Shown here piece by piece: positions 1-28,187 of a stretch of 64,000 nucleotides of DNA; positions within the stretch are counted from its first letter, which is position 1, and every line of letters starts with the position of its first letter. The DNA is from an uncultured Flavobacteriales bacterium (GTDB lineage: Bacteria > Bacteroidota > Bacteroidia > Flavobacteriales > UBA1820). The notes below the pieces were generated by a model that was not told the DNA's origin, did not search any database, and saw only the letters and a list, made by a program, of their open reading frames with translations. The DNA lies in assembly GCA_959608625.1 (NCBI GenBank), contig CAUHQV010000001.1:39783-103782 (forward strand), read 5' to 3'. The position numbers and the translations under genes were made by a program.

Positions 1-1022
1 GAACCGAAATAACCCAGAAAGCGGCCTTTGATATCCCGGTTGAGTATTTTGGAAAGGAGGGCTTCCATGGTCGGAAAAACGGTCGTATTGTAGGTCGGCG
101 CCCCGACGATAAGGCCCTTGTAGCGGAACACATCGGCCAGGATATACGAAGCGTCGCTCTTGCTCACGTTGTGCATCGCGATATTGCAGACTCCCTGTGC
201 AGAGAGTTCGGCCGCGATCGTTTCGGCCATTTGCTCGGTATTGCCGTACATGCTCCCATAGGCCACCACCACGCCGTCCTCGGCCTCGTAGCGGCTCAGT
301 CGGTCGTAAATGTCCTTTACTTTCGGGACATTTTCCATCCATACGGGCCCGTGGGTGGAACAGATGGCGGATATGGGCAGTCCTTCCAGCTTCTGGAAAG
401 CCCGCTGGACGGACGTGCCGTATTTGCCCACGACATTGGAATAGTAACGGAACATCTCGTTCCAATATTTGTCGGTATTGATGCGGGTATCCAGTACGCC
501 TCCGTCCAGGGCGCCGAACGCGCCGAACGCATCGCCGGAGAAAAGCACTCCTTCCGTGCTGTCGAAAGTCATCATCGTTTCCGGCCAATGCACCATAGGG
601 GTGAGGCGGAATTGGAGTTTGTGATGCCCTAAGTCCAACCGGGTGTCGTCTGCCACCTGGATCTGTGCCCCGGTATCTATGCCGTAGAACCCTTCCAGCA
701 TGCCGAACGCCTGTTTGCTGGCCACGATGGTGATGTCCGGGTAATATTTGCGGATCAGGCTGATGGATCCCGAATGATCCGGTTCCATATGGTTGATAAT
801 CAGATAATCGACAGGCCGATCGCCCAGTATCTGTTTTAGCTTGTGGTAAAAAGGTTCAAAATAGCAGATGTCGACCGTATCCACCAAAGCTGTCTTTTGG
901 TCGTCTATCAGGTAGGAGTTATAGGAAATACCCAGGGGAAGGGGCCACATTCCCTCGAACAGGGCTTTGCTGCGGTCGTTCACCCCTACATAATGTATGT
1001 TCCCTTTTATTTTTACGTCCAT
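1..1022 (-). CDS. FprA-family flavodiiron protein (A-type flavoprotein, O2/NO reductase); C-terminus runs off the window start
   Basis: Absent from the ORF track because it is open to the window edge. Hand translation of the reverse strand from ATG (complement of 1020-1022) gives MDVKIKGNIHYVGVNDRSKALFEGMWPLPLGISYNSYLIDD. It contains the metallo-beta-lactamase-like diiron motif NHMEPDHSG, then a flavodoxin-like VVVAYGSMYGNTEQMAETIA. Confidence 0.85.
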   Translation of the reverse strand, partial: MDVKIKGNIHYVGVNDRSKALFEGMWPLPLGISYNSYLIDDQKTALVDTVDICYFEPFYHKLKQILGDRPVDYLIINHMEPDHSGSISLIRKYYPDITIVASKQAFGMLEGFYGIDTGAQIQVADDTRLDLGHHKLQFRLTPMVHWPETMMTFDSTEGVLFSGDAFGAFGALDGGVLDTRINTDKYWNEMFRYYSNVVGKYGTSVQRAFQKLEGLPISAICSTHGPVWMENVPKVKDIYDRLSRYEAEDGVVVAYGSMYGNTEQMAETIAAELSAQGVCNIAMHNVSKSDASYILADVFRYKGLIVGAPTYNTTVFPTMEALLSKILNRDIKGRFLGYFG

Positions 1023-1069
1023 ATATCGTTTGTGATTTAATTTATTTTCGGGAAAAACCAACGATGCGG

Positions 1070-2014
1070 TTATTGCGCTTTGCTCAGAAAGGCTTCTGCG
1101 TGCCACAGGTCTGCGTCCTTCATAAGGACTTTCTTGTCCTTGTCCAGCAGGTACAGCGAAGGGATGGCCCGCAGGTCGTAAAGCCGTCCGGCGTCTATCG
1201 TGCGGCCTTTATCGTATGCTACCACCCAATTGGAAGGGAAATCCGCCGCATGTTCGCGCCACATCTCGACTTGGCCGTCCGGATAGATGGAAAGGATGGT
1301 CAATTGTTTGTCGCGGATCATTTCGTTCAGGGTCGGGGAATTTTTCATCCGGCTGGTGGTGATATGGCAGTTCTCGCATTCGGGATTGTTGAAATAGACC
1401 AGCGTGTATGGTGTTTTGATCCCGTACAGGCTTCCTTTGGCCCCGCCGATGGTCTCGTACCTGAAATCGGCTGCCGGGGCTCCCTGCCGGTTTTTGAGCA
1501 GCGTTTCCAGTTGGGCCGCAGGCCTCAAACGCGACACTTCGGGAACGCGTTTATCGGTCAGGTACGATTCTATTACACAAATGTACAATTCTTCATTGCG
1601 CATCGGGGAATTCGGGTCGTACAGGTATTTTTCGGCCAGCGTGAGGAAATGGTCGCGGGCCGCAGGCGCTGCCGATGCTTTTTCGAGGAACAGGCCGATC
1701 GACTTACGCGCCATATCCGGTTCCACGCCGTTGAGAATGTGCGTGTAATCGGCAAAACCCTGTTCGCTGACCTGGGGCAGGGACAGCAGGCTCGTATCCG
1801 CAAAATCGTAGTTGTCCCAGAAGTGTTCCGTCACGTATTCGGCCCGCGCCTGGGGCGAAGCGAGGGAATCCGGCACTTTTATGTATTCGAATGTCCGGGT
1901 AGAGTCTGCCATGGCGGCCGTTTGTTTTTCGGTTGCCGCATTGTGCCCTTTGCATCCCCAGGAAAATAAAAGGGTCGCGAACAGGGCGAGCATGGTGCAG
2001 GTTATTTTATACAT
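1070..2014 (-). CDS. Thioredoxin-fold (TlpA/AhpC-TSA-like) lipoprotein with N-terminal helical DUF5106-like domain
   Basis: 314-aa ORF. Lipoprotein-type signal (LFATLLFSWGC). C-terminal thioredoxin-like region with CxxC (NPECENCH) and the typical IPSLYLLDKDKKVL end. Confidence 0.8.
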   Translation of the reverse strand: MYKITCTMLALFATLLFSWGCKGHNAATEKQTAAMADSTRTFEYIKVPDSLASPQARAEYVTEHFWDNYDFADTSLLSLPQVSEQGFADYTHILNGVEPDMARKSIGLFLEKASAAPAARDHFLTLAEKYLYDPNSPMRNEELYICVIESYLTDKRVPEVSRLRPAAQLETLLKNRQGAPAADFRYETIGGAKGSLYGIKTPYTLVYFNNPECENCHITTSRMKNSPTLNEMIRDKQLTILSIYPDGQVEMWREHAADFPSNWVVAYDKGRTIDAGRLYDLRAIPSLYLLDKDKKVLMKDADLWHAEAFLSKAQ

Positions 2015-2064
2015 TATGTCTTGTTTTTTGTTCGTATTCCGGCCGGTTGCGGCCTTTCGGGTAA

Positions 2065-2072
2065 CAAATATA
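2065..2072 (-). promoter_or_regulatory. Candidate Bacteroidetes -7 promoter element (TATATTTG on minus strand) for the thioredoxin-fold lipoprotein/fprA unit
   Basis: Plus strand reads CAAATATA, reverse complement TATATTTG, which matches TAnnTTTG. It lies about 50 nt upstream of the ATG at 2014. Confidence 0.35.
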
Positions 2073-2084
2073 AGTCATATTTCG

Positions 2085-2092
2085 TACATTTG
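2085..2092 (+). promoter_or_regulatory. Candidate -7 promoter element TACATTTG for the eamA-eamA-bioD operon
   Basis: Exact TAnnTTTG match 22 nt upstream of the ATG at 2114. It lies inside the ORF-track N-terminal extension (2021..), which argues for the 2114 start. Confidence 0.4.
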
Positions 2093-2113
2093 CCCGCGTT
2101 AGTTGTATCCGGA

Positions 2114-3082
2114 ATGAGAAAACTGTTCACTTCCACGACTTTTCTGGCCGTGATATGTTGCATCCTTTGGGCATCGCCTTTTGTCCCGCTCAAGATAGGG
2201 CTGGAGATCATGCCGCGCCCATTGGAGTTCGCAGGGTACCGCTTTTTCCTGGCCGGTTTTTTCATCGCCTTGTTCTATGCCCTGTCGCGCATAGGGAAGA
2301 AGAACGATCCCGGTAAAGGAGGCTATTTCGCCCAGGTGCGGCGCAATTTCCCGAAAATACTGCTTATATCGGTATTTCATACTTCCCTGCTGTACACCTG
2401 TTTCTACATGGGGCAGATGCGCGTGGAAGCGGCCATCGGAGCCCTTGTGGTGGGTTCCCAACCGCTGTTTGTGGCGGTGTTCGCCCATTTTATGAAGCGC
2501 GACGACCGGCTGTCCTGGCGGAAAACGGCTGCCATTCTGCTCGGGCTGGCCGGGCTGGTGATTATCGCTTCCGGCAAAATATCGGGGGCCGATTTCCTGG
2601 GGTGGACCCCGATCCTCGGCATCCTGTTCCTGGTGGGCAACAACATGACGTCCGCATTTTCCAATGTCTTGATATCCCGTACCCAGACCGACCGGCTGGA
2701 TCCATTGGTGTTCTCCTCCTCGCAGTTGATGGTGGGCGGGCTTACCTTGTTGGCCATATCGTATCCGGTTGCCGGTTTTCACGGGTTTCCTACACAGGGA
2801 ATTTGGTGGGTGTCGCTGGCCGTACTGGTGTTCATTTCGACGGTAGCTATCGGGCTGTGGTTCGTGCTGCTGGCCCGTCCGGGTATAAAAGTATCCGAAC
2901 TGAATATGTGGAAATTCCTCATCCCGGTGGTCGGTTCGATGGAAAGCTGGGCGCTGATGCCGAATGAGTATCCTCAGTTGTATTCGGTAGTGGGGTTGCT
3001 CGTCCTCACCTCGTCCTTGGTGCTGCTGAACTATGGTAACCTGTACCGGGCTATATTTCAAAAAAATCCTCTCGAGAGATGA
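2114..3082 (+). CDS. EamA/DMT-superfamily permease (paralog 1 of tandem pair)
   Basis: Track ORF 2021..3082 trimmed to MRKLFTSTTFLAVICCILWAS. About 10 hydrophobic helices. Shares end motifs with the next gene (LWASxFVPxKxGLE, KVSELNMWKFLxPVxGSxESW). Confidence 0.85.
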   Translation: MRKLFTSTTFLAVICCILWASPFVPLKIGLEIMPRPLEFAGYRFFLAGFFIALFYALSRIGKKNDPGKGGYFAQVRRNFPKILLISVFHTSLLYTCFYMGQMRVEAAIGALVVGSQPLFVAVFAHFMKRDDRLSWRKTAAILLGLAGLVIIASGKISGADFLGWTPILGILFLVGNNMTSAFSNVLISRTQTDRLDPLVFSSSQLMVGGLTLLAISYPVAGFHGFPTQGIWWVSLAVLVFISTVAIGLWFVLLARPGIKVSELNMWKFLIPVVGSMESWALMPNEYPQLYSVVGLLVLTSSLVLLNYGNLYRAIFQKNPLER

Positions 3083-4026
3083 AGAAAATAATATTTTCCA
3101 CGCCTTTTTTGGCTATTATGACCTGCCTGTTGTGGGCTTCGACCTTCGTGCCTACCAAAGTGGGTCTCGAATACCTTTCTTCCCCCCTGCAGTTCGCGGG
3201 ATACACATACCTGATCGCAGGCGTCGTGCTGATGCCTTGGGCCCGGATCGGCCCCCGGTATTTCCGTCAGGTGAAGGACAACCTGTGGCTGATGATAAAA
3301 GTAGCCCTTTTCTCCACGACGATACTCTACGGAGCCTATTACCTGGGACAAAACCTGCTCGACGCCTCGCTGGCATCGCTCATCGTGAGCGCCCAGCCGT
3401 TCTTCGTGGCCGTGATGGCGCATTTCATGCTCAAGACCGACCGTTTTACTCCGCTCAAAGTGTTCAGCATCGCCCTGGCGGTGGTAGGCTTGGTGGTAGT
3501 GAGTTTCCCCAGCCTGATCAACATGCAGGCGATGGGTGTGGCGGCCATAGGCGGTATTTTGCTGATGCTGGTGAACTGCGTTTCGGCGGCTTACGGCAAT
3601 ATCATCGTCTCGCAAATCGATTTTTCCAAAGTGGATATCCGGGTGCTCAATTCGGCGGAACTGACTATCGGCGGCGCACTACTGCTCGCCCTGGCGGCTA
3701 TCACCGGCGACTGGCAGCCGTTCCCCACGGCCGGAATGTTCCACATCGCCCTGGTGATAAAAGTGTTCATCGCCGTCACGACGATGGTCACCTGGTTTGC
3801 CCTGCTGGCCCGTCCGGAAGTGAAAGTTTCGGAACTCAATATGTGGAAATTCCTGATGCCGGTGTTCGGATCGATCGAGAGCTGGCTGCTGATGACGGGC
3901 GACAATCCCAATGCCTTTACCGTGGCCGGGCTGTTCATCCTGACCGCTTCGCTGCTCATATTCTACAATCGGCCCCTACGGGATTTCTTTTTCAGGAAGA
4001 AAAATACGGCTAAAACAGAAAAATAA
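3079..4026 (+). CDS. EamA/DMT-superfamily permease (paralog 2 of tandem pair)
   Basis: 315-aa polytopic ORF. The start overlaps the previous stop (ATGA at 3079-3082). Clear paralog of the 2114..3082 product. Confidence 0.85.
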   Translation: MKKIIFSTPFLAIMTCLLWASTFVPTKVGLEYLSSPLQFAGYTYLIAGVVLMPWARIGPRYFRQVKDNLWLMIKVALFSTTILYGAYYLGQNLLDASLASLIVSAQPFFVAVMAHFMLKTDRFTPLKVFSIALAVVGLVVVSFPSLINMQAMGVAAIGGILLMLVNCVSAAYGNIIVSQIDFSKVDIRVLNSAELTIGGALLLALAAITGDWQPFPTAGMFHIALVIKVFIAVTTMVTWFALLARPEVKVSELNMWKFLMPVFGSIESWLLMTGDNPNAFTVAGLFILTASLLIFYNRPLRDFFFRKKNTAKTEK

Positions 4027-4709
4027 TGGCCCATAAAAAGACTTATTTCATCACCGGCATCGATACCGACGCCGGGAAAACATGGGTGACAGGCGCGTTC
4101 GCCCGCTACCTGAAAGACCACGGCAAAAACGTGGTGACCCAGAAGATCGCCCAGACAGGTTGCGTGGGGTCGTCGGAAGATATCGAACGCCACCGCCTGA
4201 TGATGGGGGTGGACTCTTTGCCGGAGGACAGGGAAGGGCTTACATGCCCCTTTATTTTCACGGTGCCGTGTTCCCCGCATCTGGCGGCCGAGATAGACGG
4301 TGCGGAGATAGATCCCGAAAAGATCACCGCCGCCCGGAAAGAACTGGAAAAACGTTATGAATACGTCCTGTGCGAAGGGGTGGGGGGGCTTTGTGTGCCC
4401 CTGAACAGGCGCGAATATTTGCTCGACTGGCTTGCCCGGCAAGACCTGCCGGTCGTATTGGTCACTTCGGGCAAACTGGGGAGCATCAACCATACGGTGA
4501 TGAGTCTCGAACTGTGCAAAGCGCGCGGGATAGACGTGGTAGCGGTCGTGTACAACTATTACCCCGATGTGTTGCCCCAAATAGAGAGGGATACGGTACG
4601 TGTGATCAAAGACTATTTGGAAGAAACGTATCCCGGGTGCGGTTTTATCCGTCTGGGCAACCTGAAAGAGGAAGGTTACGGCAGCGGGGATTTTTCCGTG
4701 TTGCTGTAA
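4026..4709 (+). CDS. bioD: Dethiobiotin synthase
   Basis: 227 aa. N-terminal P-loop FITGIDTDAGKTWVTGA, later EGVGGLCVP and GSINHT, typical of BioD. The ATG overlaps the previous TAA by 1 nt (TAATG). Confidence 0.9.
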   Translation: MAHKKTYFITGIDTDAGKTWVTGAFARYLKDHGKNVVTQKIAQTGCVGSSEDIERHRLMMGVDSLPEDREGLTCPFIFTVPCSPHLAAEIDGAEIDPEKITAARKELEKRYEYVLCEGVGGLCVPLNRREYLLDWLARQDLPVVLVTSGKLGSINHTVMSLELCKARGIDVVAVVYNYYPDVLPQIERDTVRVIKDYLEETYPGCGFIRLGNLKEEGYGSGDFSVLL

Positions 4710-4912
4710 TTTTACGCATGGCTTACCTGAAACACCTGGCCTCAGGCGGGACGGCTAAAAAAGCGAAGCGAGTGATCGTTTCTTAAAGTACCATATTGCG
4801 GCGGATAAAGAAGCCGTTAGCGAAGCTCCCATTTTCTTTATATCCCTGCATAAGGCAGGTGAACCTCGGTCTTGCTCAAACGAATTTGGCCCTGGACCCG
4901 GATTTGTCCGTT

Positions 4913-5242
4913 TCAGTCTTCAAAGTCCAATTCTGCGATCCGTTTTTGCCAGCGCTCCCATGATCTTGTGCGGGTGGTGGTGATACACAGCCGCATCGAC
5001 TGCCCGAGAATCCGGCGTTCGTCTTTTGTCCGGCCTAAACGTTCCAATAGGGGCTGCACGGCGTCGGTCAGGCGCACGATACGGCCGCATAATTTCATTT
5101 TCCGGGCGTATTCCGTTTCCAGCAAGGCCATGTACGCCTCTGCAGCTTCGATCGGCTTTCCCTGTTTTTGCAGGTCGCCCGCATGTCCGACGGCCTTTTG
5201 GTAAGCGCTTCCGGTAAAAAAGGCGATGATCCCGTCTATCAT
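4913..5242 (-). CDS. Hypothetical helical protein (109 aa), possibly co-transcribed downstream of the ZIP transporter
   Basis: ORF begins 11 nt after the ZIP gene stop on the same strand. Balanced helical composition. No family recognised. Confidence 0.35.
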   Translation of the reverse strand: MIDGIIAFFTGSAYQKAVGHAGDLQKQGKPIEAAEAYMALLETEYARKMKLCGRIVRLTDAVQPLLERLGRTKDERRILGQSMRLCITTTRTRSWERWQKRIAELDFED

Positions 5243-5252
5243 GCGGCGGATG

Positions 5253-6020
5253 CTATATGACCACCAGCATGGCGGCGATGAATCCCAAAACGATAATAAC
5301 CAGTTTGCGCACTTTCCCGTATGCCGCCATATCGCAGTCGAAGAGCATGACCGAGGAAACGTGCAGCAGAATACCTACTACCACGGCCAACGCCGCGTAG
5401 TAATACTCGTGGAATATCTCCGTATGCGCCCCTACGAACATGCCGAGTGGGCCGGCCAGCCCGAACAGCAGCATCAGGAGCATGGCCTTGGTCTTGCTGC
5501 GTACGCTGCGAAGGATCAGGATGTACAGCACGATAGCCATCGGGATGGTGTGCAGAGCGATACTCAGCAGCAGCGGGGATACTCCGCCTATATCCAGGAT
5601 GCCGTGGGCATGGTCGTGGCCGTGGACATCCCCGGCCAATATCGGGGTGGATTCCAGGAAAGTATGGAGGAACAGGCTGACGAACATGCCGATGGTCAGC
5701 GAATTGTCGACTTTTTCGCCCGAATGGGAATGGCTGTGCGTACAGGAATCCGTATGGGTATGCCCATGGTCGACTCCTTTGGTGAAAAAATCGAGTACCG
5801 CCTGGATGAGCAGCCCGCCCATGATGCAGAATCCGATCACAGTGGCCGAGAGGCCTCCTTCGTAAGCCTCGGGAAGCATGTGGAATACGATAATGCCCAG
5901 TACGAAAGCCCCGGTGAATCCGGAAATCAGGTCGACGGCCGTTTTAGTCAGCCGGCCCCGGAAAATATTGACCACTACTACTGCCAGTACGGTGGCGGCG
6001 AACAGGATGAGGTAATCCAT
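5253..6020 (-). CDS. ZIP-family divalent metal (zinc/iron) transporter
   Basis: Track ORF 5253..6170 trimmed to MDYLILFAATVLAVVVVNIF. Polytopic, with a His-rich loop GVDHGHTHTDSCTHSHSHSGE and DVHGHDHAHG. Confidence 0.85.
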   Translation of the reverse strand: MDYLILFAATVLAVVVVNIFRGRLTKTAVDLISGFTGAFVLGIIVFHMLPEAYEGGLSATVIGFCIMGGLLIQAVLDFFTKGVDHGHTHTDSCTHSHSHSGEKVDNSLTIGMFVSLFLHTFLESTPILAGDVHGHDHAHGILDIGGVSPLLLSIALHTIPMAIVLYILILRSVRSKTKAMLLMLLFGLAGPLGMFVGAHTEIFHEYYYAALAVVVGILLHVSSVMLFDCDMAAYGKVRKLVIIVLGFIAAMLVVI

Positions 6021-6043
6021 GCGGGATGCGGTTTTTAGGTTTG

Positions 6044-6051
6044 CAAAGTTA
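6044..6051 (-). promoter_or_regulatory. Candidate -7 element TAACTTTG (minus strand) for the ZIP transporter
   Basis: Plus strand CAAAGTTA, reverse complement TAACTTTG, about 23 nt upstream of the ATG at 6020. It lies inside the track's N-terminal extension, which supports the trimmed start. Confidence 0.35.
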
Positions 6052-6213
6052 AGCCAAATGTAACGGTTTTTCACCACAGGAAGGCAATAAATGGAAACCT
6101 TGGCAGGAAAAAACGAAACTCTTCCGCGCGGTAAATGCAGGCGGGCTTTGTGTGTGAACGGATATGACAATTCTCATAGTTTGTGGGATTTTTAGATACA
6201 CCCGTTCTTTTCG

Positions 6214-6221
6214 TATTTTTG
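6214..6221 (+). promoter_or_regulatory. Candidate -7 element TATTTTTG for the GNAT gene
   Basis: Exact TAnnTTTG about 30 nt upstream of the ATG at 6251. It lies inside the track extension (6164..). Confidence 0.35.
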
Positions 6222-6250
6222 CAGGTAAACACACCCTAAAACGAAAACAG

Positions 6251-6565
6251 ATGAATGTGATCTCCCTGAGAGAACAACCCCGGTATTTGGAAACGGCGAT
6301 CGCCTATTTCCAAAGCAAATGGGCCGGAGAAGACTCCCGGATGGATCTGTATCCCTGGTTGGTGGCGCTATTCATCGAGGAAAAACACCGGGGAAATAAC
6401 TATGGGAAATTGTTGATCGACCAAGCGGAAAAAGATGCGCGGGCTGCAGGATTTGAGAACATGTACCTGTGTACCGATCATACTTCCTATTACGAGCGGT
6501 TCGGATTTGCTTATTTGGGCGAATGCTACCACCCTTGGGGGGCGTTCGCGGGTGTACGGGATTAG
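6251..6565 (+). CDS. GNAT-family N-acetyltransferase, unusually short (104 aa), possibly internally deleted
   Basis: Starts [55 protein letters not shown]. Retains the acetyl-CoA motif region (RGNNYG). It appears to lack the central strands present in longer homologs as I remember them. Confidence 0.6.
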
Positions 6566-6589
6566 TCTGTGACGCCGGATTAAGATACA

Positions 6590-6621
6590 AAACGGCCCCG
6601 GTAAAACCGGGGCCGTTTTTG
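6590..6621. terminator. Bidirectional rho-independent terminator between GNAT (+) and amidase (-)
   Basis: Stem CGGCCCCGG (6593-6601), loop TAAAA, stem CCGGGGCCG (6607-6615), then TTTTT. There is an A-run on the 5' side. Confidence 0.7.
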
Positions 6622-6642
6622 CACGTAAATATGCTTGCCTGT

Positions 6643-8370
6643 TTATTTGGAAGCCTTGAATTTCTTCGGGGCTTTGGCATCGCTGCCGTCCACCGAGGCG
6701 AGGAATTTTTCCAATCCCCAGGCCGTACGCTCCATCATTTCATCCCGGAAATGTTTGTCCAGTATCTTGGACGAATCTTCCGGGGAAGAGAGGAACAGCG
6801 TTTCCACCAGGACGGTCAGGTATTCGGTAGGTTGGTTGAGCGAGAAGTTGAAATTTCCCACGTTTCCGAAATTGGCCACGTCCATCGGCAGGATGCTTTC
6901 CAGGATGAAGGCGGAAAGCGGACGGTGGGACAGGTGGCGGTAATAAGTGCTGGTACCTTTGGCCGTGAAGGGCGAACCGCCGGCGTTGCAGTGGATGGAA
7001 ATCAGGATGTCGGCCCCGGCGTTCAGGGCGGTTGCCTTGCGGTCGGCCATCGAGGTATTATCTATGCCCGGGCGGGTGAGGATCACTTTCGCTCCTTTGG
7101 ATTCCAGCACTTTTTTCAGGTGTTCGGCCATATCTTTGGTCAGATCCTGTTCTTTCACTCCGCTGGTCGTCCGGGCCCCGTTCCAGGGTTCCCCGTGGCC
7201 TGCGTCTACGGCGATGACCAGGTTTTTTAGCTTCAGGCTTTCGGGCCGGTGTTTCACTTTAATCACCAGACTGTTGCCCCGGTAGGACACAGAGTAACCC
7301 CATATCTGGCTGTTCTTCAGGTCTACTACCACACGGAACACATCGTCCTCGACCTGTTTGTACGATACGTTGGCGATCTCTTTCTCGCCTTTGAGCTGGG
7401 TAATCCAGTTCGTGTTGCAGGCTGCGCCGAACAGATCGACGTTGATCCGGTGAAGGTCCACGTCTTCGGTAATGGCGTAGGGCAGGCGTTCGCTCAGACC
7501 TACGACCAGGTAGTCGTAATTCCCGTCGGTCGAGACGCTCCACGATCCGGTGAGCGATTCCCCCGGGAAAGTTCCTTCGGGGAGTTTTTCAGTGTAGCTG
7601 TCCGGTATCCAGGCGATCGTATTGCGCGAGAGCTGCACTTTATACATATCGTTCACCCGGCCTATTACCCGGAGTTTTATCCCGGCGTCGAGCGAGTTGA
7701 TCTTCGTGCCGCCCAAGCGGTCGGTTCCCAGCCCGTAGTTGAGGTAGGCCCCCTCCTTGGTTTGTACCATGAAGGGCGTTTTTCCGTCCAGGAACTCCAT
7801 TTTGGATTTGACGGCCTGCACGGCGGACGAATCCCCTGCGGCGATCGAAAGTTCTACCGGCCGGGTGATATTCGTGTCGTCCGGCTGTACCGTGTATTGC
7901 CCCTGGAAAACGCCGGGGGATACTTCGTAAAGAGGACTGCCTCCCAACCAGGATAGTTTGGCACCCGGCATCGAACGCAGGCGGATACGTACGGCATCTC
8001 CCGGGGCGACTGCCATATTGTCGGAAGGGAGTATCTGGACGTTTTCGGCGCGCAGACCGTCTACCGGTTTAGGCGCTTCCCGTTTTTTCAGGAAAACGCT
8101 TTTAGTCAGGCTCTGCCCATCCCCTGTGGACAGGGTGAAAGTGTTGTCGCCTTCTTTCAGGTCGACCCGCGCCGCCCATTCCCCGGACGAATAGATGGGG
8201 AAAGACTGTCCCTGCACGGTGATCTGCGACCCGGCCGGGCCCATTCCGCGCAGGTTGACGATAGCGGTGTAGGTCGTGTCGGCCGATCCGGCCACGATTT
8301 TCAGTTCCTGGGCCTGTGCGGCGAGTACCGGGGCGGCGGCCAGAAGGATGCAAATAGATTTTTTCAGCAT
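6643..8370 (-). CDS. N-acetylmuramoyl-L-alanine amidase (Amidase_3) with N-terminal beta-sandwich and SH3-like domains
   Basis: Track ORF trimmed to the signal peptide MLKKSICILLAAAPVLAAQAQ (cat at 8368-8370). C-terminal LVIAVDAGHGEPWNGA, ADILISIHCNAGG and FLSSPED motifs. Confidence 0.85.
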   Translation of the reverse strand: MLKKSICILLAAAPVLAAQAQELKIVAGSADTTYTAIVNLRGMGPAGSQITVQGQSFPIYSSGEWAARVDLKEGDNTFTLSTGDGQSLTKSVFLKKREAPKPVDGLRAENVQILPSDNMAVAPGDAVRIRLRSMPGAKLSWLGGSPLYEVSPGVFQGQYTVQPDDTNITRPVELSIAAGDSSAVQAVKSKMEFLDGKTPFMVQTKEGAYLNYGLGTDRLGGTKINSLDAGIKLRVIGRVNDMYKVQLSRNTIAWIPDSYTEKLPEGTFPGESLTGSWSVSTDGNYDYLVVGLSERLPYAITEDVDLHRINVDLFGAACNTNWITQLKGEKEIANVSYKQVEDDVFRVVVDLKNSQIWGYSVSYRGNSLVIKVKHRPESLKLKNLVIAVDAGHGEPWNGARTTSGVKEQDLTKDMAEHLKKVLESKGAKVILTRPGIDNTSMADRKATALNAGADILISIHCNAGGSPFTAKGTSTYYRHLSHRPLSAFILESILPMDVANFGNVGNFNFSLNQPTEYLTVLVETLFLSSPEDSSKILDKHFRDEMMERTAWGLEKFLASVDGSDAKAPKKFKASK

Positions 8371-11812: not shown

Positions 11813-12906
11813 AGCGGCTGAAGATACTCGACTGGTATATCCTCAAGAATTTCCTGGGCACTTTCCTGGTGACCGAGGTGGTGATCCTCGTATTGGCGGT
11901 GGTGGTCGATATGTCGGAAAAGATCGACAAATACCTCACCAACGAGGCCCCGATGATCGAGATCGTCAAGTATTACCTGAATTTCGCGCTTTATTACGGC
12001 AACATGTACATGTCGCTGGTCGTATTCCTGGCGGCGACCATTTTTACGTCCAAGTTCGCGGCCCGTTCGGAGATCATCGCCATTATGAGCGCGGGGGTGA
12101 ATTACAACCGTTTCCTCCGCCCGTATCTTGTGGGGGCAACGCTTTTGATGTGCTTTTCGATGGTGATCAACAATTTCATCCTGCCGTATTCCAACGTGCG
12201 CCGTTTCGCTTTCGAGGCGAAGTATGTCAAACCCCAGCGGCAGGACTTCCAATTTGAACAGAACATCCACAAACAGGTCGGGCCGGGGCAGATGCTGTAT
12301 ATATACGACTGGAACATCGGTCAAAAGACCGGGCAAAAATTTGCGCTCGAACAGTACGATTCCACAGGGGCGCTGGTTCATAAATTTTCGGCGGACAATA
12401 TCCGGTACGATGAAGATTCGGCCCGGTACCATATTTCTACCTTTTTCGTCCGCGACCTGAATCCCGACGGGTCGGACAATCTCAGATCGGGCTATTTGTT
12501 GGATACGATTTTCCCGTTCACCCCGGCCGATTTTACCAAAGATAAACGCATCGGGGACAAAAAAAACTCCCTCGAACTGGAAAAATTGATAAAACTGGAA
12601 CAGGAGCGGGGTTCGCCGGACGTACGGGCGCTTATTACCGAAAAATACAAACGGTTCGCTCTGCCTTTTTCCTGTATTATCCTTACGCTGCTGGCGGTAT
12701 CCCTCTGCTCGCGCAAGAAGCGGGGCGGGGCGGGGATCAACATCGCGGTGGGCATTGTGCTGATGGCGGCTTATTTATTCATGCTCCGTATCTTTGAAAC
12801 CACCGCCGCCAAGAGTGTCGATGGGTATCCGCTTTTCTGGATATGGCTCCCCAATATCTTGTTCGCAGGGATAGCTTATTATCTGTACCGCAATGCAAAG
12901 AAGTGA
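11809..12906 (+). CDS. LptF/LptG-family LPS export permease
   Basis: Trimmed to MKRLKILDWYILKNFLGTFL (ATGA overlap with the tgt stop). N-terminal 3 TM, a periplasmic beta-jellyroll-sized loop, then C-terminal 3 TM. Confidence 0.85.
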   Translation: MKRLKILDWYILKNFLGTFLVTEVVILVLAVVVDMSEKIDKYLTNEAPMIEIVKYYLNFALYYGNMYMSLVVFLAATIFTSKFAARSEIIAIMSAGVNYNRFLRPYLVGATLLMCFSMVINNFILPYSNVRRFAFEAKYVKPQRQDFQFEQNIHKQVGPGQMLYIYDWNIGQKTGQKFALEQYDSTGALVHKFSADNIRYDEDSARYHISTFFVRDLNPDGSDNLRSGYLLDTIFPFTPADFTKDKRIGDKKNSLELEKLIKLEQERGSPDVRALITEKYKRFALPFSCIILTLLAVSLCSRKKRGGAGINIAVGIVLMAAYLFMLRIFETTAAKSVDGYPLFWIWLPNILFAGIAYYLYRNAKK

Positions 12907-13825
12907 CCATAAAGCGCACCCGTACCTCTCCCTCCATCTCGTTATCCTGATATTCGGTTTTACCGGGATACTCGGGCGGTACATCGATACCCCGCCTACG
13001 GCCCTGACCATTTACCGTACCGGGCTTACGTTCATCTGCCTGGGGCTTTTCATGTGGTACAAAGGCATGTCTTTCCGGGTGGGGACAAAAAACATCGTCC
13101 TGCTCCTGCTTTCGGGCGGGGTAATAGGTATACACTGGGTATTGTTCTTTTCGGCTATCAAGCAGGCCAACGTTTCGGTGACCATGGCGATGCTCGCTAC
13201 GGGAGCTTTGTTCGCTTCGTTCCTCGAACCCGTATTTTATCACCGCCGCCTGCGTATCCATGAAGTCCTGTTCGGGCTGCTGGCCGTAGTGGGTATATTC
13301 GTCATATCGGGGCAGAATTCCGATTTCCACGGCGGGATCATTACCGCATTGGCCGCCTCGTTCGTATCGGCCTGTTATTCCATCATCAACAGCAAGTGGT
13401 ACCGCAAGTTTCCCAACGATGCGGTGATGGTGTCCTTTTACGAAATGGTCGGCGCCGTGGTGGTCGTAGCCTTGGTGTTCGCCCCGACGGAAGGTTTTGT
13501 GCAGGGATTGGGAAAAGTCGACTTAAAGGATGCTTTGGGTATCCTGTTCCTGGCGATCGTATGTACTTCGTATACCAGCGTACGGATGATCCAATTGTTC
13601 CGTTACCTTTCGCCGTTCACCGTGATGCTCAATATCAACCTCGAGCCGGTGTATGCCATGCTGATGGCGGCGGTCCTGTACCCGGACGAGCGGATGTCGG
13701 GGACTTTTTATGCCGGGGCGGCCATTATCCTTTCCACGGTAGTACTCAACGCCCTGCTGAACAATTACCGCGACCGCCGCAAGGCCAAACGCCTGGCTGC
13801 GGGGAAGGAAAAAATGGCGAATTAA
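12893..13825 (+). CDS. DMT/EamA-superfamily permease
   Basis: 310-aa 10-TM ORF overlapping the lptF/G end by 14 nt. Two EamA-like halves. Confidence 0.8.
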
Positions 13826-18863: not shown

Positions 18864-20273
18864 ATGGACCTAAAAAAATTGAGAAGCATTATCGCCGGCC
18901 CGACGTTTACGGGCGGCCTGCTGTTTTTCGCCGCGGTGGCGGCGTTCATCTGGGCGAACGTATCGCCGGATACCTATAACGCCGTCTGGAACCAGCCGCT
19001 GACCCTCAACCTAGGTACGCATATCGAAAAGGCGCTGGAAAACGGGGTGGAGGTGGAGCACGTCTCTTACTTCATGTCCATCCACCTGAAGAGCCTCCAG
19101 CTGTTGGTGAGCGACCTGCTGATGGTTATCTTCTTCTTTAGCGTCGGCCTGGAGATCAAAGGCGAGTTCATCGCCGGAAAACTCTCCACATTCAGCAAAG
19201 CGATCCTGCCTATAGGCGCAGCGCTGGGCGGCATGATCTTACCGGCCCTCATTTACTTCTGCTTCAACCATGATGCGACCGATATCGCCGAACAGGGGTG
19301 GGGTATCCCGATGGCCACGGACATCGCGTTCTCCCTGGCGGTTATTTCTCTGCTGGCCAAACGTGTGCCGCTGAGCCTGAAGATATTCCTGATGACCCTT
19401 GCCGTAGCGGACGACCTGGGTGGTATCGCCGTGATCGCGTTCTTCTATACCGAGCACCTCGATACGGGCGCGCTGGCTATCGCTCTGATCGGAACGGGCT
19501 TCCTGTTTTTGGCCAACATGGTCAACGCCCGTACGAAATGGCTGTACTATGTCGTCGGCTTCGTGGTCGTGTGGACACAGATTCTCGAATCGGGCGTACA
19601 TGCTACCATCGCCGGTATCCTGATGGGCTTCGCCTTCCCGACCAATGTCGGCATGCTGCCCAAGGAATATGCGGCCAAAGCGCAGAAAGTACTCGAAGGG
19701 CTCAAACACAAAGGACAGGAATCCCTGTTTCGTGGTATGCCCGATGCAGATACGTCGGATGCTTATTTTGAAATGCGCCAGCTTACCACCCGCGCGGAAA
19801 GCCCGCTGGCCAGCGTGGAGCGCTCTATTGCTCCGTTCGTAGCGCTCGTCATCATGCCGGTCTTTGCCCTGGCCAATGCCGGGGTGAATATTAGCGGCGA
19901 TTTGAGCTTTACCCAAGCGATCACGGCTCCTGTGGCATTAGGCGTGGGTATCGGCCTGCTGATCGGTAAACCGATAGGTATCTTCCTGTTCACCTTGCTC
20001 TTCGTCAAACTCGGTATCGGCAAACTGCCGGACGATGTGCGGTGGAAACACATATTCGGTATGGGTATCATCGCCGGTATGGGCTTCACGGTGGCCTTGT
20101 TCATTACCGAACTGGCCTTCCGCACGACCAACCTGTCCATCCGGGAGATAGCACTGAATTACACTTCCGAGGCAAAACTGGCGATCCTGTTGGCTTCTGT
20201 ATTGGCAGCCATCCTGGGGTATATGTTCCTGTATGCCGTATCCGGAAAAAAGAAAGCGAAAGCGCATAAATAA
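18864..20273 (+). CDS. nhaA: Na+/H+ antiporter NhaA
   Basis: Trimmed to MDLKKLRSIIAGPTF. GWGIPMATDIAFSL, LAVADDLGGI and PVFALANAGV are NhaA signatures. Confidence 0.9.
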   Translation: MDLKKLRSIIAGPTFTGGLLFFAAVAAFIWANVSPDTYNAVWNQPLTLNLGTHIEKALENGVEVEHVSYFMSIHLKSLQLLVSDLLMVIFFFSVGLEIKGEFIAGKLSTFSKAILPIGAALGGMILPALIYFCFNHDATDIAEQGWGIPMATDIAFSLAVISLLAKRVPLSLKIFLMTLAVADDLGGIAVIAFFYTEHLDTGALAIALIGTGFLFLANMVNARTKWLYYVVGFVVVWTQILESGVHATIAGILMGFAFPTNVGMLPKEYAAKAQKVLEGLKHKGQESLFRGMPDADTSDAYFEMRQLTTRAESPLASVERSIAPFVALVIMPVFALANAGVNISGDLSFTQAITAPVALGVGIGLLIGKPIGIFLFTLLFVKLGIGKLPDDVRWKHIFGMGIIAGMGFTVALFITELAFRTTNLSIREIALNYTSEAKLAILLASVLAAILGYMFLYAVSGKKKAKAHK

Positions 20274-20292
20274 AGTATAGGCTTTATCAACT

Positions 20293-20324
20293 AAAAAGGG
20301 GCCGGCATGCGCCGGCCCCTTTTT
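20293..20324. terminator. Bidirectional rho-independent terminator (first of two)
   Basis: AAAAA, then GGGGCCGGC, ATGC loop, GCCGGCCCC, then TTTTT. Confidence 0.8.
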
Positions 20325-20333
20325 AGTGTCCAT

Positions 20334-20368
20334 AAAAAAAGTCCCGGAATATTTCCGGGACTTTTTTT
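20334..20368. terminator. Bidirectional rho-independent terminator (second of two)
   Basis: AAAAAAA, then GTCCCGGAA, TAT loop, TTCCGGGAC, then TTTTTTT. Confidence 0.8.
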
Positions 20369-20394
20369 CAGTAGCACAAGTAATAAACCGCTGC

Positions 20395-20709
20395 TTATTT
20401 GAGCAGGGCTTCGACTTTTGCTTTCAGATCGGCCTTGGTAGCGGCACCTACTTGCTTGTCTGCCAGATGGCCGTCCTTGAAGAACAGGATAGTCGGAATG
20501 TTGCGGATGCCCAGGGTCGCGGAAACACCGGGGTTGTCGTCCACGTTCACTTTTCCGATCACCACTTTGCCGTCGTATTCGCCGGCCAGTTCGTCGATAA
20601 TGGGGGCTACCATGCGGCAGGGGCCGCACCAGGGAGCCCAGAAGTCTACTACTACCGCTCCGCTTTTGATCACTTCGGAGAAGTTAGCATCTGTTATTTC
20701 CTTTGCCAT
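20395..20709 (-). CDS. trxA: Thioredoxin
   Basis: Trimmed to MAKEITDANFSEVIKSG. Active site DFWAPWCGPCRM. 104 aa. Confidence 0.9.
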   Translation of the reverse strand: MAKEITDANFSEVIKSGAVVVDFWAPWCGPCRMVAPIIDELAGEYDGKVVIGKVNVDDNPGVSATLGIRNIPTILFFKDGHLADKQVGAATKADLKAKVEALLK

Positions 20710-20770
20710 TTTCAGTTGATATTTAAGTTTATAAAATGTTTTTCGGTTATAGTCGGTTTGTCTTCCTGGG

Positions 20771-21325
20771 CTATTTCTTAAAATAGCGGTTGTACAGGCC
20801 TTCGAAACCTTTGCCGTGGCGCGCTTCATCCTTGGCCATTTCATGCACCGTGTCGTGGATCGCGTCCAGGTTCAGCTCTTTTGCGCGTTTAGCGATACGC
20901 ATCTTATCCTCGCAGGCGCCGGATTCCGCGTGCATGCGTTTTTCCAGGTTGGTTTTGGTATCCCATACCACGTCGCCCAGCAATTCGGCGAATTTGCTGG
21001 CATGCTCGGCTTCTTCCCAGGCATAGCGTTTGTACGCTTCTGCGATCTCCGGGTATCCTTCGCGGTCTGCCTGGCGGCTCATGGCCAGATACATTCCCAC
21101 TTCGGAGCATTCTCCCATGAAATGGGCGTTCAGGTCCTTGATCATCTGTTCGTCACAGCCTTTGGCCACACCGATTACGTGCTCGGTCACGAACGCCAGT
21201 GATTCGCCGCTCTCCACCAATTCCTTGAATTTGCTGGCCGGGACATGGCATTGTGGGCATTTTTCGGGAGGAGTATCCCCTTCATGTACATAACCGCAGA
21301 CGGTGCAGATAAATTTCTTTTTCAT
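20771..21325 (-). CDS. Reverse rubrerythrin (N-terminal rubredoxin-like Cys4 domain plus C-terminal diiron four-helix bundle)
   Basis: N-terminus [20 protein letters not shown], then ferritin-like [24 protein letters not shown] and [14 protein letters not shown]. Confidence 0.9.
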
Positions 21326-21574
21326 GTTGATTGATGATGTATTATGTTTTTAATGCAAGTTCCCTGTTAGTTGTCGTAAAGATACGGCTTTTTGCCTGCC
21401 AGAGGAAAGCCCCGGATATAATAGTTTATGTTGGGGTAATAGATAAAAACTATAATTCTTGATCTTCAACTGATTACCGATAGATGGGAGGCTGTATTTC
21501 CGAAGCGGCGAAAAATACCGAATCTTAGGATTTATTTAAGTCCGTAGCCGGACGGGAAAAAGACATATTATATG

Positions 21575-21582
21575 TATCTTTG
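21575..21582 (+). promoter_or_regulatory. Candidate -7 element TATCTTTG for bamD-rpoZ
   Basis: Exact TAnnTTTG 62 nt upstream of the ATG at 21644. A second exact match, TAATTTTG, lies at 21631-21638. Confidence 0.35.
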
Positions 21583-21643
21583 CCCGATATGTTTATCCGG
21601 ATTTTTTGCCGGATTAATTGATAAAATTCATAATTTTGCGCCT

Positions 21644-22561
21644 ATGTTATCCAACCGTGTAAAATTACTATCCTTCTGCATCCTGACGCTATTGGCGACC
21701 GGTTGCAGTCAGTACGCCAAAATGCTTCGCAATGAAGATGCGAGCGCCAAACTGGAATATGCCAAAAAACTTTTCGAACAGGAAAAGTATTCCAAGGTCA
21801 CAAAACTCCTCGAACCGGTGTATTCGACATTCAAGAATACCAAAGAAGGGGAAAATACGGACTGGATGATGGCTTATTCCTGGTATATGGATGGTTCGTA
21901 TGAATTGGCCGCTTATATGATGTCGAATTACGCCCGTATGTACCCGCTGAGCGACAAAGCGGAAGAAGCCGCTTTCCTTTCCGCTGAGTCCTCCTACAAG
22001 ATATCCCCGGAAAGTTATCTCGACCAAGAAAATACGACCAAGGCGATCTCCGCAGTGCAACGTTTTCTGGATCGCTATCCCAATGCCCCCCAAGTACCTA
22101 AGGCAGACAGTATAGTCCGGGAATTGAATGCAAAACTAGACAGGAAACAATACGATATCGCTTATAATTATTATCGTTTAGAGGAGTACCAGGCGGCAGT
22201 AATCGCTTTTTCAAACATATTGGACGACAACCCATCCACCACGTACCGGGAAAAGATCATGTACTACCGTTTTCGGGCCGCCGCTATCTATGCCAACAAA
22301 AGTATACCTGAATTGCAGCAGGAACGCTATACCGATGCGCTTACTTATGGCCGGATATTCTTGCAGCGTTTCCCGGATTCCGTGCATGTGGCGGAAGTGC
22401 GGAATTTGGTGAAAGCCATTGAGGAGCGGTCTACGGCATTGAATGAAGTTATAAAGAACATGAATAAGGATCTTGGAAAAGTAAAGACCAGGAACCTCAA
22501 TAAAAAAGTGGAAAAAGAGGTCAAGACGACCCACAAGCAAGAAAAACACAAAGAAAAGTAA
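21644..22561 (+). CDS. bamD: Outer membrane protein assembly factor BamD (TPR lipoprotein)
   Basis: Trimmed to MLSNRVKLLSFCILTLLATGCS (lipobox). TPR-like repeats. Lys-rich tail. Followed by an omega-like gene, as in Bacteroidetes. Confidence 0.85.
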   Translation: MLSNRVKLLSFCILTLLATGCSQYAKMLRNEDASAKLEYAKKLFEQEKYSKVTKLLEPVYSTFKNTKEGENTDWMMAYSWYMDGSYELAAYMMSNYARMYPLSDKAEEAAFLSAESSYKISPESYLDQENTTKAISAVQRFLDRYPNAPQVPKADSIVRELNAKLDRKQYDIAYNYYRLEEYQAAVIAFSNILDDNPSTTYREKIMYYRFRAAAIYANKSIPELQQERYTDALTYGRIFLQRFPDSVHVAEVRNLVKAIEERSTALNEVIKNMNKDLGKVKTRNLNKKVEKEVKTTHKQEKHKEK

Positions 22562-22562
22562 T

Positions 22563-22931
22563 ATGGACCTTAAAAAATCGAATGCATCCCTTACCACTAT
22601 TACAAGGGATATCAGCGACATAGATGCCAAGACCGGCAATATTTACGAGGCGATCATGATCATCGGTAAACGGGCCACCCAGATAGGGGTGGATCTAAAA
22701 AAGGAACTTAACGATAAACTCGATGAGTTTGCCGCTAATGCCGAGAATTTGGAGGAAGTTTTTGAAAATAAGGAACAAATAGAGGTTTCCCGTTTTTATG
22801 AAAAGCTTCCTAAATCTACGGCGATCGCTATCCAGGAATGGATGGAAGACCGCATTTATTTCCGGCAAGGAGGAAAAAAAGCAGAGAATCAAGAGATTGT
22901 CCGCGGAGAAATCCCTGCTGAAAAAAAATAG
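22563..22931 (+). CDS. rpoZ: DNA-directed RNA polymerase subunit omega-like protein (Bacteroidetes type)
   Basis: 122 aa. NIYEAIMIIGKRATQI and EVSRFYEKLPKSTAIAIQEW match my recollection of the Bacteroidetes omega family located after bamD. Confidence 0.75.
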   Translation: MDLKKSNASLTTITRDISDIDAKTGNIYEAIMIIGKRATQIGVDLKKELNDKLDEFAANAENLEEVFENKEQIEVSRFYEKLPKSTAIAIQEWMEDRIYFRQGGKKAENQEIVRGEIPAEKK

Positions 22932-22983
22932 CGGAAAAACAGTTGCGGGGGTCGGAAAAATAACTAAATTTGCACCGCAGTTC

Positions 22984-23054
22984 AGCCCTATGGTGTAATG
23001 GTAGCACATCAGATTCTGGATCTGCTTGTCTAGGTTCGAATCCTGGTAGGGCTA
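22984..23054 (+). tRNA. tRNA-Gln (anticodon CTG)
   Basis: Hand-folded cloverleaf. Acceptor AGCCCTA/TAGGGCT, D arm GTGT-AATGGTA-GCAC, anticodon loop TTCTGGA, T arm CTAGG-TTCGAAT-CCTGG, discriminator A. 71 nt, no encoded CCA. Confidence 0.9.
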
Positions 23055-23057
23055 CAA

Positions 23058-23094
23058 AGTCTTTGTGATTTTAAAATTGCAAAGGCTTTTTTTT
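23058..23094 (+). terminator. Rho-independent terminator after tRNA-Gln
   Basis: AGTCTTTGTGATTT/AAATTGCAAAGGCT, a 14-bp stem (three G-U pairs as RNA) followed by a T8 run. Confidence 0.65.
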
Positions 23095-23157
23095 ATATCT
23101 TATCCGTTCCGGATTAACTTGTCACCCGATTTGTGCCCATAGGTTAGAAATATTTTA

Positions 23158-23165
23158 TATTTTTG
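23158..23165 (+). promoter_or_regulatory. Candidate -7 element TATTTTTG for the wza-like/wzz-like pair
   Basis: Exact TAnnTTTG 42 nt upstream of the ATG at 23207. Confidence 0.35.
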
Positions 23166-23206
23166 TTTTTTTAAGATACCCTGTTCCAGGAAATAAATTG
23201 CTATAG

Positions 23207-25636: not shown

Positions 25637-25647
25637 ACGGAACACCG

Positions 25648-26751
25648 ATGGATCAGAATACTAAAGAAGAAAATACGGGAGGCCGTGAAATCGATCTGAT
25701 AGAGCTCGTTAAAAAGGTATGGGCCGCTCGGCGTTTTATCATTAAATGGACTGTGGCGACAACCGTTGTCGGTTTAGTGGTGGCTTTCAGCATTCCCGCG
25801 GAATATGGCGTGTCCGTAAAAATGGTCGCAGAAGACAATACCAATACACAGGCCTCGGGGGGGATGTCCCAATTGATGAATTTGGCCGGTTTTGGTACGG
25901 GTACGGCTGGAAGCGGATATGGCATAGGCGTTATGATGTATCCGGAAATAGTTTCTACCGTTCCTTTTTTGGCGGATATGCGAAATATCAAAGTGCAACC
26001 CCGAAAGGCAGATGTGCCGGTTACATTGTATGAATATATTACCAAAGACCAAGAAACAGCTTGGTGGAATTACATAATAAGCGCTCCTTTCAAGGCATTA
26101 GGTTGGGTTAGCTCTCTGTTTAGGGAGAAGAAAGAGGTGGCCCGGAATGACTCCTTCAATATTTTTGCTCTTACACCTGAACAGGAGCACTATATCAATG
26201 GAATGAGAGCCCGGGTGAACATAAGCCTTAATAAAAAGACAGCCATTGTTTCTGCCAATGTGACCATGCAGGATCCGGTAGTCACTGCTGTGGTAGCCGA
26301 TTCCATGGTTGCAAAACTGAAAGAATATATAATTCGTTACCGCACGGATAAAGCCCGGCAGGATATGGAATATTGTACCCGGGCTTTCGAAGAGTCTAAA
26401 AACCAGTATTTTAATGCGCAAAAGCGTTATGCTGTTTTTGTGGATCAGAATAAAAATATTGTAAAAGAATCGGTAAAAATAGAGCAGGATCGTCTCAACA
26501 ATGAAATGAATCTGGCATTCAGCGTTTACAATGCCACGGCACAGCAATTGGAAACGGCAAAATTGAAGGTCCAGGAGCAGACCCCGTGCGTGACGGTCAT
26601 CGAACCTGCCTCGGTGCCGTTGAGAAAATCGAAACCCCGGAAAATGAATATCCTGTTCGGCTTTATTTTCTTAGGGATTGTGGGATCCGCCGGTTATGTG
26701 GCCGGAAAAGAACTGTTTTTCGGTCAGAAGAGTTCGTCTATGCCCAAATAG
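25648..26751 (+). CDS. Wzz-like chain-length-determinant (PCP) protein without kinase domain
   Basis: 367 aa. N-terminal IDLIELVKKVWAARRFI plus a TM. Long periplasmic coiled coil. C-terminal P-rich segment plus a TM (KPRKMNILFGFIFLGIVG). Confidence 0.8.
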   Translation: MDQNTKEENTGGREIDLIELVKKVWAARRFIIKWTVATTVVGLVVAFSIPAEYGVSVKMVAEDNTNTQASGGMSQLMNLAGFGTGTAGSGYGIGVMMYPEIVSTVPFLADMRNIKVQPRKADVPVTLYEYITKDQETAWWNYIISAPFKALGWVSSLFREKKEVARNDSFNIFALTPEQEHYINGMRARVNISLNKKTAIVSANVTMQDPVVTAVVADSMVAKLKEYIIRYRTDKARQDMEYCTRAFEESKNQYFNAQKRYAVFVDQNKNIVKESVKIEQDRLNNEMNLAFSVYNATAQQLETAKLKVQEQTPCVTVIEPASVPLRKSKPRKMNILFGFIFLGIVGSAGYVAGKELFFGQKSSSMPK

Positions 26752-28019: not shown

Positions 28020-28145
28020 TCGGTGGGTAAATAGTGTTTTCGATTCAGCGCACTAAATTACTCAAAAGGTGCATCAATAATAGTTATCGTTCGTTTTTCC
28101 AGATTATTTTTTCATTTTCGGCTTGATTTATATTTCTTTTTTGAT

Positions 28146-28153: not shown

Positions 28154-28187
28154 ATAAGAATGATGTGTGATAATAAAAGGAAATGAA

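Follow-up and report, generated by a model that had tools for sequence, protein, structure and literature searches.

A family-wide arrangement of two EamA-type permease genes and bioD in gut Flavobacteriales of the family UBA1820: a candidate operon for biotin-precursor salvage

Many gut and marine bacteria have a truncated biotin pathway, and cross-feeding of biotin precursors is accepted (PMC6593275, PMC9561691). No bacterial transporter for 7-keto-8-aminopelargonate (KAPA) or 7,8-diaminopelargonate (DAPA) has been identified, and the breadth ascribed to BioY and YigM is a guess (PMC6593275, PMC9561691). Here, a computational analysis was performed for a gene trio composed of two permease genes of the drug/metabolite transporter (DMT) superfamily, termed EamA1 and EamA2, and of bioD, the gene of dethiobiotin synthetase. 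The trio is located in a 64,000-nt stretch of DNA, in the following called the window, from an uncultured Flavobacteriales bacterium (GenBank assembly GCA_959608625.1, contig CAUHQV010000001.1, positions 39,783 to 103,782). A first-pass annotation, made from the sequence alone, had described the trio as a candidate module for transport and conversion of a biotin precursor and had assumed a Bacteroidales host; the host belongs instead to the Flavobacteriales family UBA1820. Salvage of precursors by a truncated biotin pathway has already been published and the components of the trio are of ordinary known families. The novelty lies in the joining of bioD to two DMT permease genes in one operon, conserved throughout a family of uncultured gut bacteria.

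Salvage of DAPA by truncated biotin pathways is accepted as a prediction (PMC6593275). Among the described systems, the truncated variant A2 of Rodionov et al. 2019 (BioD, BioB and BirA) comprises 38 gut genomes, for which DAPA salvage and a biotin auxotrophy rescued by DAPA, dethiobiotin or biotin were predicted (PMC6593275). The UBA1820 bacterium resembles A2 in being a gut bacterium with a BioD and no upstream enzymes nearby. It differs in that it belongs to the Flavobacteriales, that its bioD stands in an operon with two DMT permeases and that its BioB is a presumed one. The genomes with A2 are from Actinobacteria, Proteobacteria and Firmicutes, and for their uptake of DAPA a broad specificity of BioY or YigM was suggested instead of a dedicated transporter (PMC6593275). 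In the BIO3-BIO4-BIO5 cluster of Saccharomyces cerevisiae the permease Bio5 imports KAPA and DAPA (Phalip et al. 1999, as cited in PMC7187267). Like the trio, this cluster, as summarised in PMC7187267, combines a vitamer permease with a dethiobiotin synthetase (Bio4), the biotin synthase gene lying outside it, and follows the logic of importing a precursor and then converting it; unlike the trio, it is eukaryotic and includes the aminotransferase Bio3, and the likeness is one of analogy, not homology. The BioP (YigM) protein of Escherichia coli is, like EamA1 and EamA2, a ten-helix DMT secondary transporter with two EamA domains (PMC4049904), but it scores above the cut-off of the family model TIGR00950 and the window permeases are not its orthologues. 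Furthermore, bacteria possessing only bioB were shown experimentally to grow on dethiobiotin released by others; unlike in the trio, this salvage needs BioB alone, does not involve bioD and uses a transporter that was not identified (PMC9561691). Finally, the canonical Bacteroidota operon bioB-bioA-bioF-bioG-bioC-bioD resembles the trio in that a BioD 55-56% identical to that of the window is encoded last, and it differs in that the place of its first five bio genes is taken, in the window and its relatives, by two permease genes.

The trio and its junctions were located as follows (window coordinates):

2085..2092, forward strand: putative -7 promoter box of the Bacteroidota type, TACATTTG, lying in a conserved block approximately 21 nt before the EamA1 start codon
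2114..3082, forward strand: EamA1, DMT/EamA permease of 322 aa with two Pfam EamA domains, from ATG 2114 to TGA 3082
3079..3082, forward strand: ATGA overlap of the EamA1 stop and the EamA2 start, 4 nt shared
3079..4026, forward strand: EamA2, DMT/EamA permease of 315 aa with two Pfam EamA domains
4024..4028, forward strand: TAATG overlap of the EamA2 stop and the BioD start, 1 nt shared
4026..4709, forward strand: BioD, ATP-dependent dethiobiotin synthetase of 227 aa, terminal gene of the operon

The tight packing and the ATGA and TAATG couplings described in the first-pass annotation are borne out by the coordinates of the open reading frames (ORFs) and by the junction sequences. The EamA1 frame is open from a TTG at 2021, with the ATG at 2114 being the sole start conserved among relatives, and the gene located 3′ of bioD (4913-5242) is encoded on the opposite strand. 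The overlap of EamA1 and EamA2 by ATGA is kept in the window, L002, L007, L012, L013 and L015 (L numbers designate the individual loci), and the variants are a gap of 32 nt in L016 and overlaps of 8 nt in L103 and L104. At the junction of EamA2 and bioD, L002 carries TGATG as an equivalent, gaps of at most about 15 nt occur in L013 and L016, and the spacing of about 87 nt in L015 results from an insertion of 84 nt. The three genes thus share one strand and conserved junctions, with overlaps or short gaps in all relatives, and in a pattern scan, sites resembling promoters or terminators were not enriched within the three-gene unit. On these sequence features, EamA1, EamA2 and bioD are probably co-transcribed as a single operon. 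Since bioD overlaps or abuts EamA2 in every genome, leaving no room for a promoter, it would depend on a promoter 5′ of EamA1.

Upstream of EamA1, the block TTTCGTACATTTGyCCrCGTTAGTTGT is identical or near-identical in five of six aligned upstream regions, in contrast to the diverged remainder of the intergenic region. The -7 promoter consensus of Bacteroidota is TAnnTTTG, and the element TACATTTG within this block fits it and is presumably a promoter. The block as a whole resembles a promoter with a short leader and contains only a weak ACA...TGT dyad. A riboswitch or another known RNA was considered and rejected, as an Rfam search of positions 1-7000 was blank and the leader is too short for a riboswitch.

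The BioD protein matched the NCBIfam equivalog TIGR00347 (EC 6.3.3.3) over the full-length profile (1-166) with 153.1 bits at a cut-off of 83.3, and its closest matches in the PDB are the structures of E. coli BioD. The active site is intact: the P-loop G11-x-D-T-x-x-G-K18-T is retained, with T14, K18 and T19 corresponding to E. coli T11, K15 and T16, the carbamate lysine K40 corresponds to K37 and T44 to S41, E117 of the motif E117-G-x-G-G corresponds to E115, N177 to N175 and P203 to P204, and the substrate loop K150-L-G-S-I-N-H156 (KLGxINH) is retained. All of these residues are invariant in an alignment of nine sequences comprising members of the clade, canonical Bacteroidota BioDs and E. 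coli BioD; the region of E. coli D54 aligns ambiguously, D52 being its likely counterpart. As judged from these residues, the window BioD is predicted to be an authentic dethiobiotin synthetase, with no sign of an altered pocket or substrate, and as a canonical enzyme with an intact DAPA-binding loop it would need DAPA.

The search for further bio genes around the trio covered the 64-kb window and the 10-kb flanks of the related loci. BioB, BioA, BioF, BioG, BioC and BioD of one canonical operon were used as tblastn queries against the window. Only BioD was matched and no match was obtained for the other five, in agreement with the first-pass annotation, which had called bioD solitary. Pfam scans of the approximately 50 other ORFs of the window revealed no bio, BioY or BirA gene, and neighbouring genes for BioB, BioA, BioF, BioG or BioC were likewise not found within 10 kb of the trio in any related locus. 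In the salvage reading given below, BioB would be encoded elsewhere in the genome, and BioA and BioF would be absent from the rest of it. Horizontal acquisition of bioD was also considered, because its nearest named matches are from Bacteroidales and Marinilabiliales and not from Flavobacteriales, but the housekeeping control GuaA gave the same taxonomic mix, and therefore nothing can be inferred on a horizontal transfer of bioD.

The family UBA1820 comprises Flavobacteriales of the avian and human gut, whose genomes measure approximately 1.8-2.0 Mb (PMC7214798). The closest named BioD, that of Candidatus Merdimorpha stercoravium, is 85% identical to the window BioD. A scan of one genome per GTDB species yielded five genomes, labelled Flavobacteriales, UBA1820 or Merdimorpha and including two from the human gut, and EamA1-EamA2-BioD was present in all five. 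Additionally, the trio was found in ten metagenome loci, in several strain-level contigs and in two more divergent lineages, L103 and L104 (59-63% identity for EamA2 and 67-70% for BioD). It is intact in L002-L005, L007-L009, L012-L016, L023-L030, L032-L033, L103 and L104. At least seven lineages and about 18 loci of the clade were examined, and the trio is kept in every one. The lack of conservation that the first-pass annotation had named as an argument against its proposal was thus not encountered inside UBA1820. The three genes are under strong purifying selection, with pairwise dN/dS ratios (nonsynonymous to synonymous substitution rates) of 0.03-0.15 overall (EamA1 0.04-0.11, EamA2 0.03-0.15, BioD 0.03-0.14) at dS values of 1-3, which are saturated between the deeper lineages.

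The unit is kept although a rearrangement hot spot is located directly after bioD (window 4710-6200), where the arrangement differs even among strains with BioDs at least 94% identical. Depending on the genome, bioD is followed by UvrB (L007, L008), by DUF179/HMG-CoA synthase (L009), by an amidase or, as in the window, by a small ORF (109 aa) and a ZIP transporter gene. UvrB looks like the ancestral downstream neighbour, because it is also found in L103 and L104. Two apparent disruptions of EamA2 were dismissed. In L005, where EamA2 appears as two ORFs of 232 and 91 aa, the split (about 3020-3035) is a run of N in the scaffold and not a pseudogene. L015 (MGYG-HGUT-02722) has not lost EamA2 but carries the mentioned 84-nt insertion at the 3′ end of the gene (3384-3470), which partly repeats the preceding sequence and shifts the stop codon, and which may be either a genuine duplication or an error of assembly.

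Both permeases contain EamA domains (Pfam E-values of 9e-25 and 2e-28) and are 40% identical to each other over 318 aa (E 2e-77). The two sequence motifs quoted in the first-pass annotation as common to the permeases are present in both, and the similarity at the DNA level stated there was confirmed as a stretch of 158 nt with 73% identity (2858-3015 versus 3793-3950), which surrounds the motif KVSELNMWKF. The motif K-V-S-x-L-N-x-W-K-F marks both proteins as members of a distinct DMT subfamily. In a neighbour-joining tree, EamA2 grouped with its closest solitary homologues with 100% bootstrap support and EamA1 was sister to that group with 82%; EamA2 is the orthologue of the single-copy permeases that are widespread in Bacteroidota. 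A recent tandem duplication was rejected as the origin of the pair, since EamA1 and EamA2 were exclusive sisters in none of 100 replicates and EamA2 grouped with the solitary homologues of other organisms. When 1.84 billion cluster representatives were searched exhaustively, a single other full-length cluster of the EamA1 type was found, P0326, which is 64% identical to the EamA1 of the window and likewise to that of L103; the remaining full-length matches were at most 42% identical, and higher scores came from short fragments alone. On the basis of the tree and this search, the EamA1 paralogue type is found solely where the linkage to bioD occurs, P0326 being a cluster without a locus.

A sequence search of the PDB with EamA2 gave no match. 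Its AlphaFold model (predicted local distance difference test 86.7, predicted template modelling score 0.83) matches the DMT fold of LicB (7PAF; template modelling scores 0.74/0.83) and of the exporter YddG (5I20). LicB, the source of the best match, is the pneumococcal choline importer, and because the best matches include an importer as well as an exporter, the fold is silent on the direction of transport. Both permeases are predicted to be 10-helix EamA-type DMT proteins (PF00892 twice). The yeast permease Bio5 belongs to the amino-acid permease (APC) superfamily and not to DMT.

The analogy to YigM/BioP drawn in the first-pass annotation holds at the level of the superfamily but does not extend to orthology. 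EamA1 is 23% identical to E. coli BioP over 246 aa (BLASTP, E 9e-4), and EamA2 gave no significant BLASTP alignment with it. Against TIGR00950, with a cut-off of 230.2 bits, BioP scored 309.9 and EamA1 68.8 bits, EamA2 gave no match, and unrelated EamA genes of the window, used as controls, scored 56 and 88 bits. Although TIGR00950 is the only NCBIfam match of EamA1, a specific affinity to BioP was rejected because unrelated EamA genes of the window and distant solitary homologues match this model as well as EamA1 or better. By these comparisons neither permease is orthologous to BioP/YigM.

The reading that we tentatively favour, at a strength somewhat short of probable, is that the operon imports DAPA and converts it to dethiobiotin, from which biotin is completed by a BioB encoded elsewhere. 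The precursor, either DAPA or a biotin vitamer closely related to it, would be released by neighbours and taken up by at least one of the two DMT permeases. BioD would close the ureido ring with CO2 and ATP, and BioB would turn the resulting dethiobiotin into biotin. We infer the transported substrate and the direction of import from several lines of evidence. A conserved canonical BioD occurs without a local source of DAPA and in presumably obligatory co-expression with the permeases, and the unit was kept through rearrangements in small, host-associated genomes in which the six-gene arrangement was lost. This loss is deduced from the nearest outgroup BioDs, 55-56% identical, each of which is encoded by the last gene of a complete bioB-bioA-bioF-bioG-bioC-bioD operon. 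Moreover, the EamA1 paralogue type is restricted to loci with bioD, precedents exist in the A2 variant (BioD with BioB) and in yeast Bio5, and the DMT fold includes importers of amines (LicB) and of biotin (BioP). Salvage of DAPA by this operon is best regarded as a reasonable lead, unproven, and not as a demonstrated system. Of the module proposed in the first-pass annotation, the architecture and the logic of salvage stand, while the BioP analogy, the taxon and the generality beyond UBA1820 do not.

Several points weigh against import of DAPA. The permease subfamily was surveyed in the best 80 metagenome loci found with the motif K-V-S-x-L-N-x-W-K-F, 70 of which are outside the UBA1820 clade; each of these 70 carries a single permease, with no BioD, BioB or BioA in 618 kb of flanking sequence (53 loci with at least 1 kb downstream and 31 with 3 kb or more on either side). 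Individual inspection of five further homologues showed them to be solitary too, in unrelated contexts. The co-occurrence for which the first-pass annotation had asked is kept in every UBA1820 member examined, but the linkage is absent from all of these loci outside the family. Because the subfamily is elsewhere single-copy without a bio neighbour, the ancestral substrate of the permease was probably something general. The link of permeases and bioD is, from its distribution, a single innovation of the UBA1820 lineage that coincides with the EamA1 paralogue, and with a single origin in one family it counts as one evolutionary event. Exporters (YedA, EamA) account for the weak NCBIfam matches of the subfamily no less than the BioP family does, and a biotin-type regulatory site was not found in the aligned upstream regions or with Rfam. 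DAPA is, in addition, a minor excreted vitamer relative to dethiobiotin and KAPA. Finally, about 91% of the BioD-carrying genomes in a gut survey are full prototrophs (PMC6593275).

The last point and the restriction of the linkage to one family, together with the permease subfamily lacking a bio context anywhere else examined, also favour a rival explanation that we consider nearly as likely as salvage, namely that bioD shares no function with the permeases. It would be an ordinary housekeeping gene whose biotin pathway is complete, with its genes dispersed over the genome, and would merely be co-transcribed with two upstream permeases for general metabolites. These permeases would be exporters or importers of amino acids or carboxylates, and the arrangement would persist because breaking an operon in which bioD has no promoter of its own is deleterious. 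Breakpoints at the borders of the unit are expected for any operon, and the window contains two more, unrelated EamA genes in unrelated contexts. If UBA1820 genomes hold the complete pathway, the trio is an ordinary mixed operon. However, as the closest outgroup BioDs are encoded in compact six-gene operons, a scattered complete pathway would need several separate relocations, the small gut-associated genomes (1.8-2.0 Mb) favour auxotrophy, and the clade-specific EamA1 coincides exactly with the linkage to bioD.

The direction of transport could also be reversed, with DAPA made internally and the permeases expelling dethiobiotin, biotin or another vitamer, as cross-feeding or overflow, or a toxic by-product. 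Many characterised bacterial DMT proteins are exporters, the weak matches of the subfamily include YedA and the O-acetylserine/cysteine exporter, YddG is among the best structural matches of the EamA2 model, and excretion of biotin vitamers by enterobacteria was reported, as cited in PMC6593275. Such an export module is nevertheless quite unlikely, since it offers no obvious selective benefit to an organism with a small genome, would require bioA and bioF elsewhere in the genome and is without precedent, as linkage of bioD to an exporter dedicated to vitamers is not known. That the clade lacks BioB altogether, and that BioD converts imported DAPA or an analogue to an end other than biotin for the cell itself, is judged very unlikely. 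With bioB first and bioD last in the outgroup operons, a single deletion sparing bioD would also remove bioB, and two different permeases with one enzyme fit a scheme of import, conversion and export, in which uptake of the substrate and release of the cyclic-urea product might be divided between the two permeases. This is opposed by a survey of 2,228 gut genomes, which showed upstream truncations alone and never BioD without BioB (PMC6593275), and by the canonical residues of BioD, all of which are kept in a pocket showing no change. The related and more extreme idea that UBA1820 has no other bio gene at all, and that the trio is a self-contained module for import, cyclisation and release with BioD outside the organism's own biotin synthesis, is regarded as unlikely. 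Import of S-adenosylmethionine (SAM) was rejected as well: in one Wolbachia strain, the biotin operon has an EamA-type SAM importer next to it (PMC7750005), but BioD uses ATP and CO2, not SAM.

With salvage of DAPA as the favoured reading, a permease pair locked to bioD family-wide is a concrete candidate for the missing bacterial transporter of DAPA or KAPA. That EamA1 and EamA2 represent the first transporters in bacteria to be dedicated to a biotin precursor is less likely than not. If the salvage reading is true, auxotrophy predictions for uncultured gut Flavobacteriales would be improved, and DAPA or dethiobiotin would be suggested as growth supplements.

Some further observations were made around the trio and its homologues. 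BioF-like genes located 3-4 kb from some of the solitary permeases were dismissed as bio genes, because they encode Kbl (glycine C-acetyltransferase): their scores pass the cut-offs for Kbl but fall short of the one for BioF. Kbl recurs 3-4 kb upstream of the solitary permeases in L035, L036, L048 and L054, with two copies in L048 and L054, which may point to a substrate related to amino acids in that subgroup of solitary permeases. The gene encoded divergently upstream of the trio is also found in L007, L103 and L104, and in Merdimorpha a 73-aa ORF and a gene for a flavodiiron-type protein replace it:

1070-2014, reverse strand: DUF5106 and thioredoxin-like protein

Two further DMT genes bring the total to four within 64 kb of a genome of about 2 Mb. 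A low-GC stretch (window approximately 20000-30000; GC fraction of 0.45-0.49 versus 0.53-0.58 elsewhere) may be an acquired capsule or exopolysaccharide island, and a cytochrome bd oxidase and a rubrerythrin represent oxygen-handling genes in a gut member of the Flavobacteriales. The positions are:

12893-13825, forward strand: further EamA/DMT gene, following LptF/G, with no significant BLASTP similarity to EamA2
44099-45319, reverse strand: further EamA/DMT gene
23207-25636: Wza-like polysaccharide export protein, in the low-GC stretch
25648-26751: Wzz chain-length determinant, in the low-GC stretch
26724-28019: Omp85-like gene, in the low-GC stretch
20771-21325, reverse strand: rubrerythrin, oxygen-handling
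29803-32622, reverse strand: cytochrome bd oxidase subunits I and II, oxygen-handling

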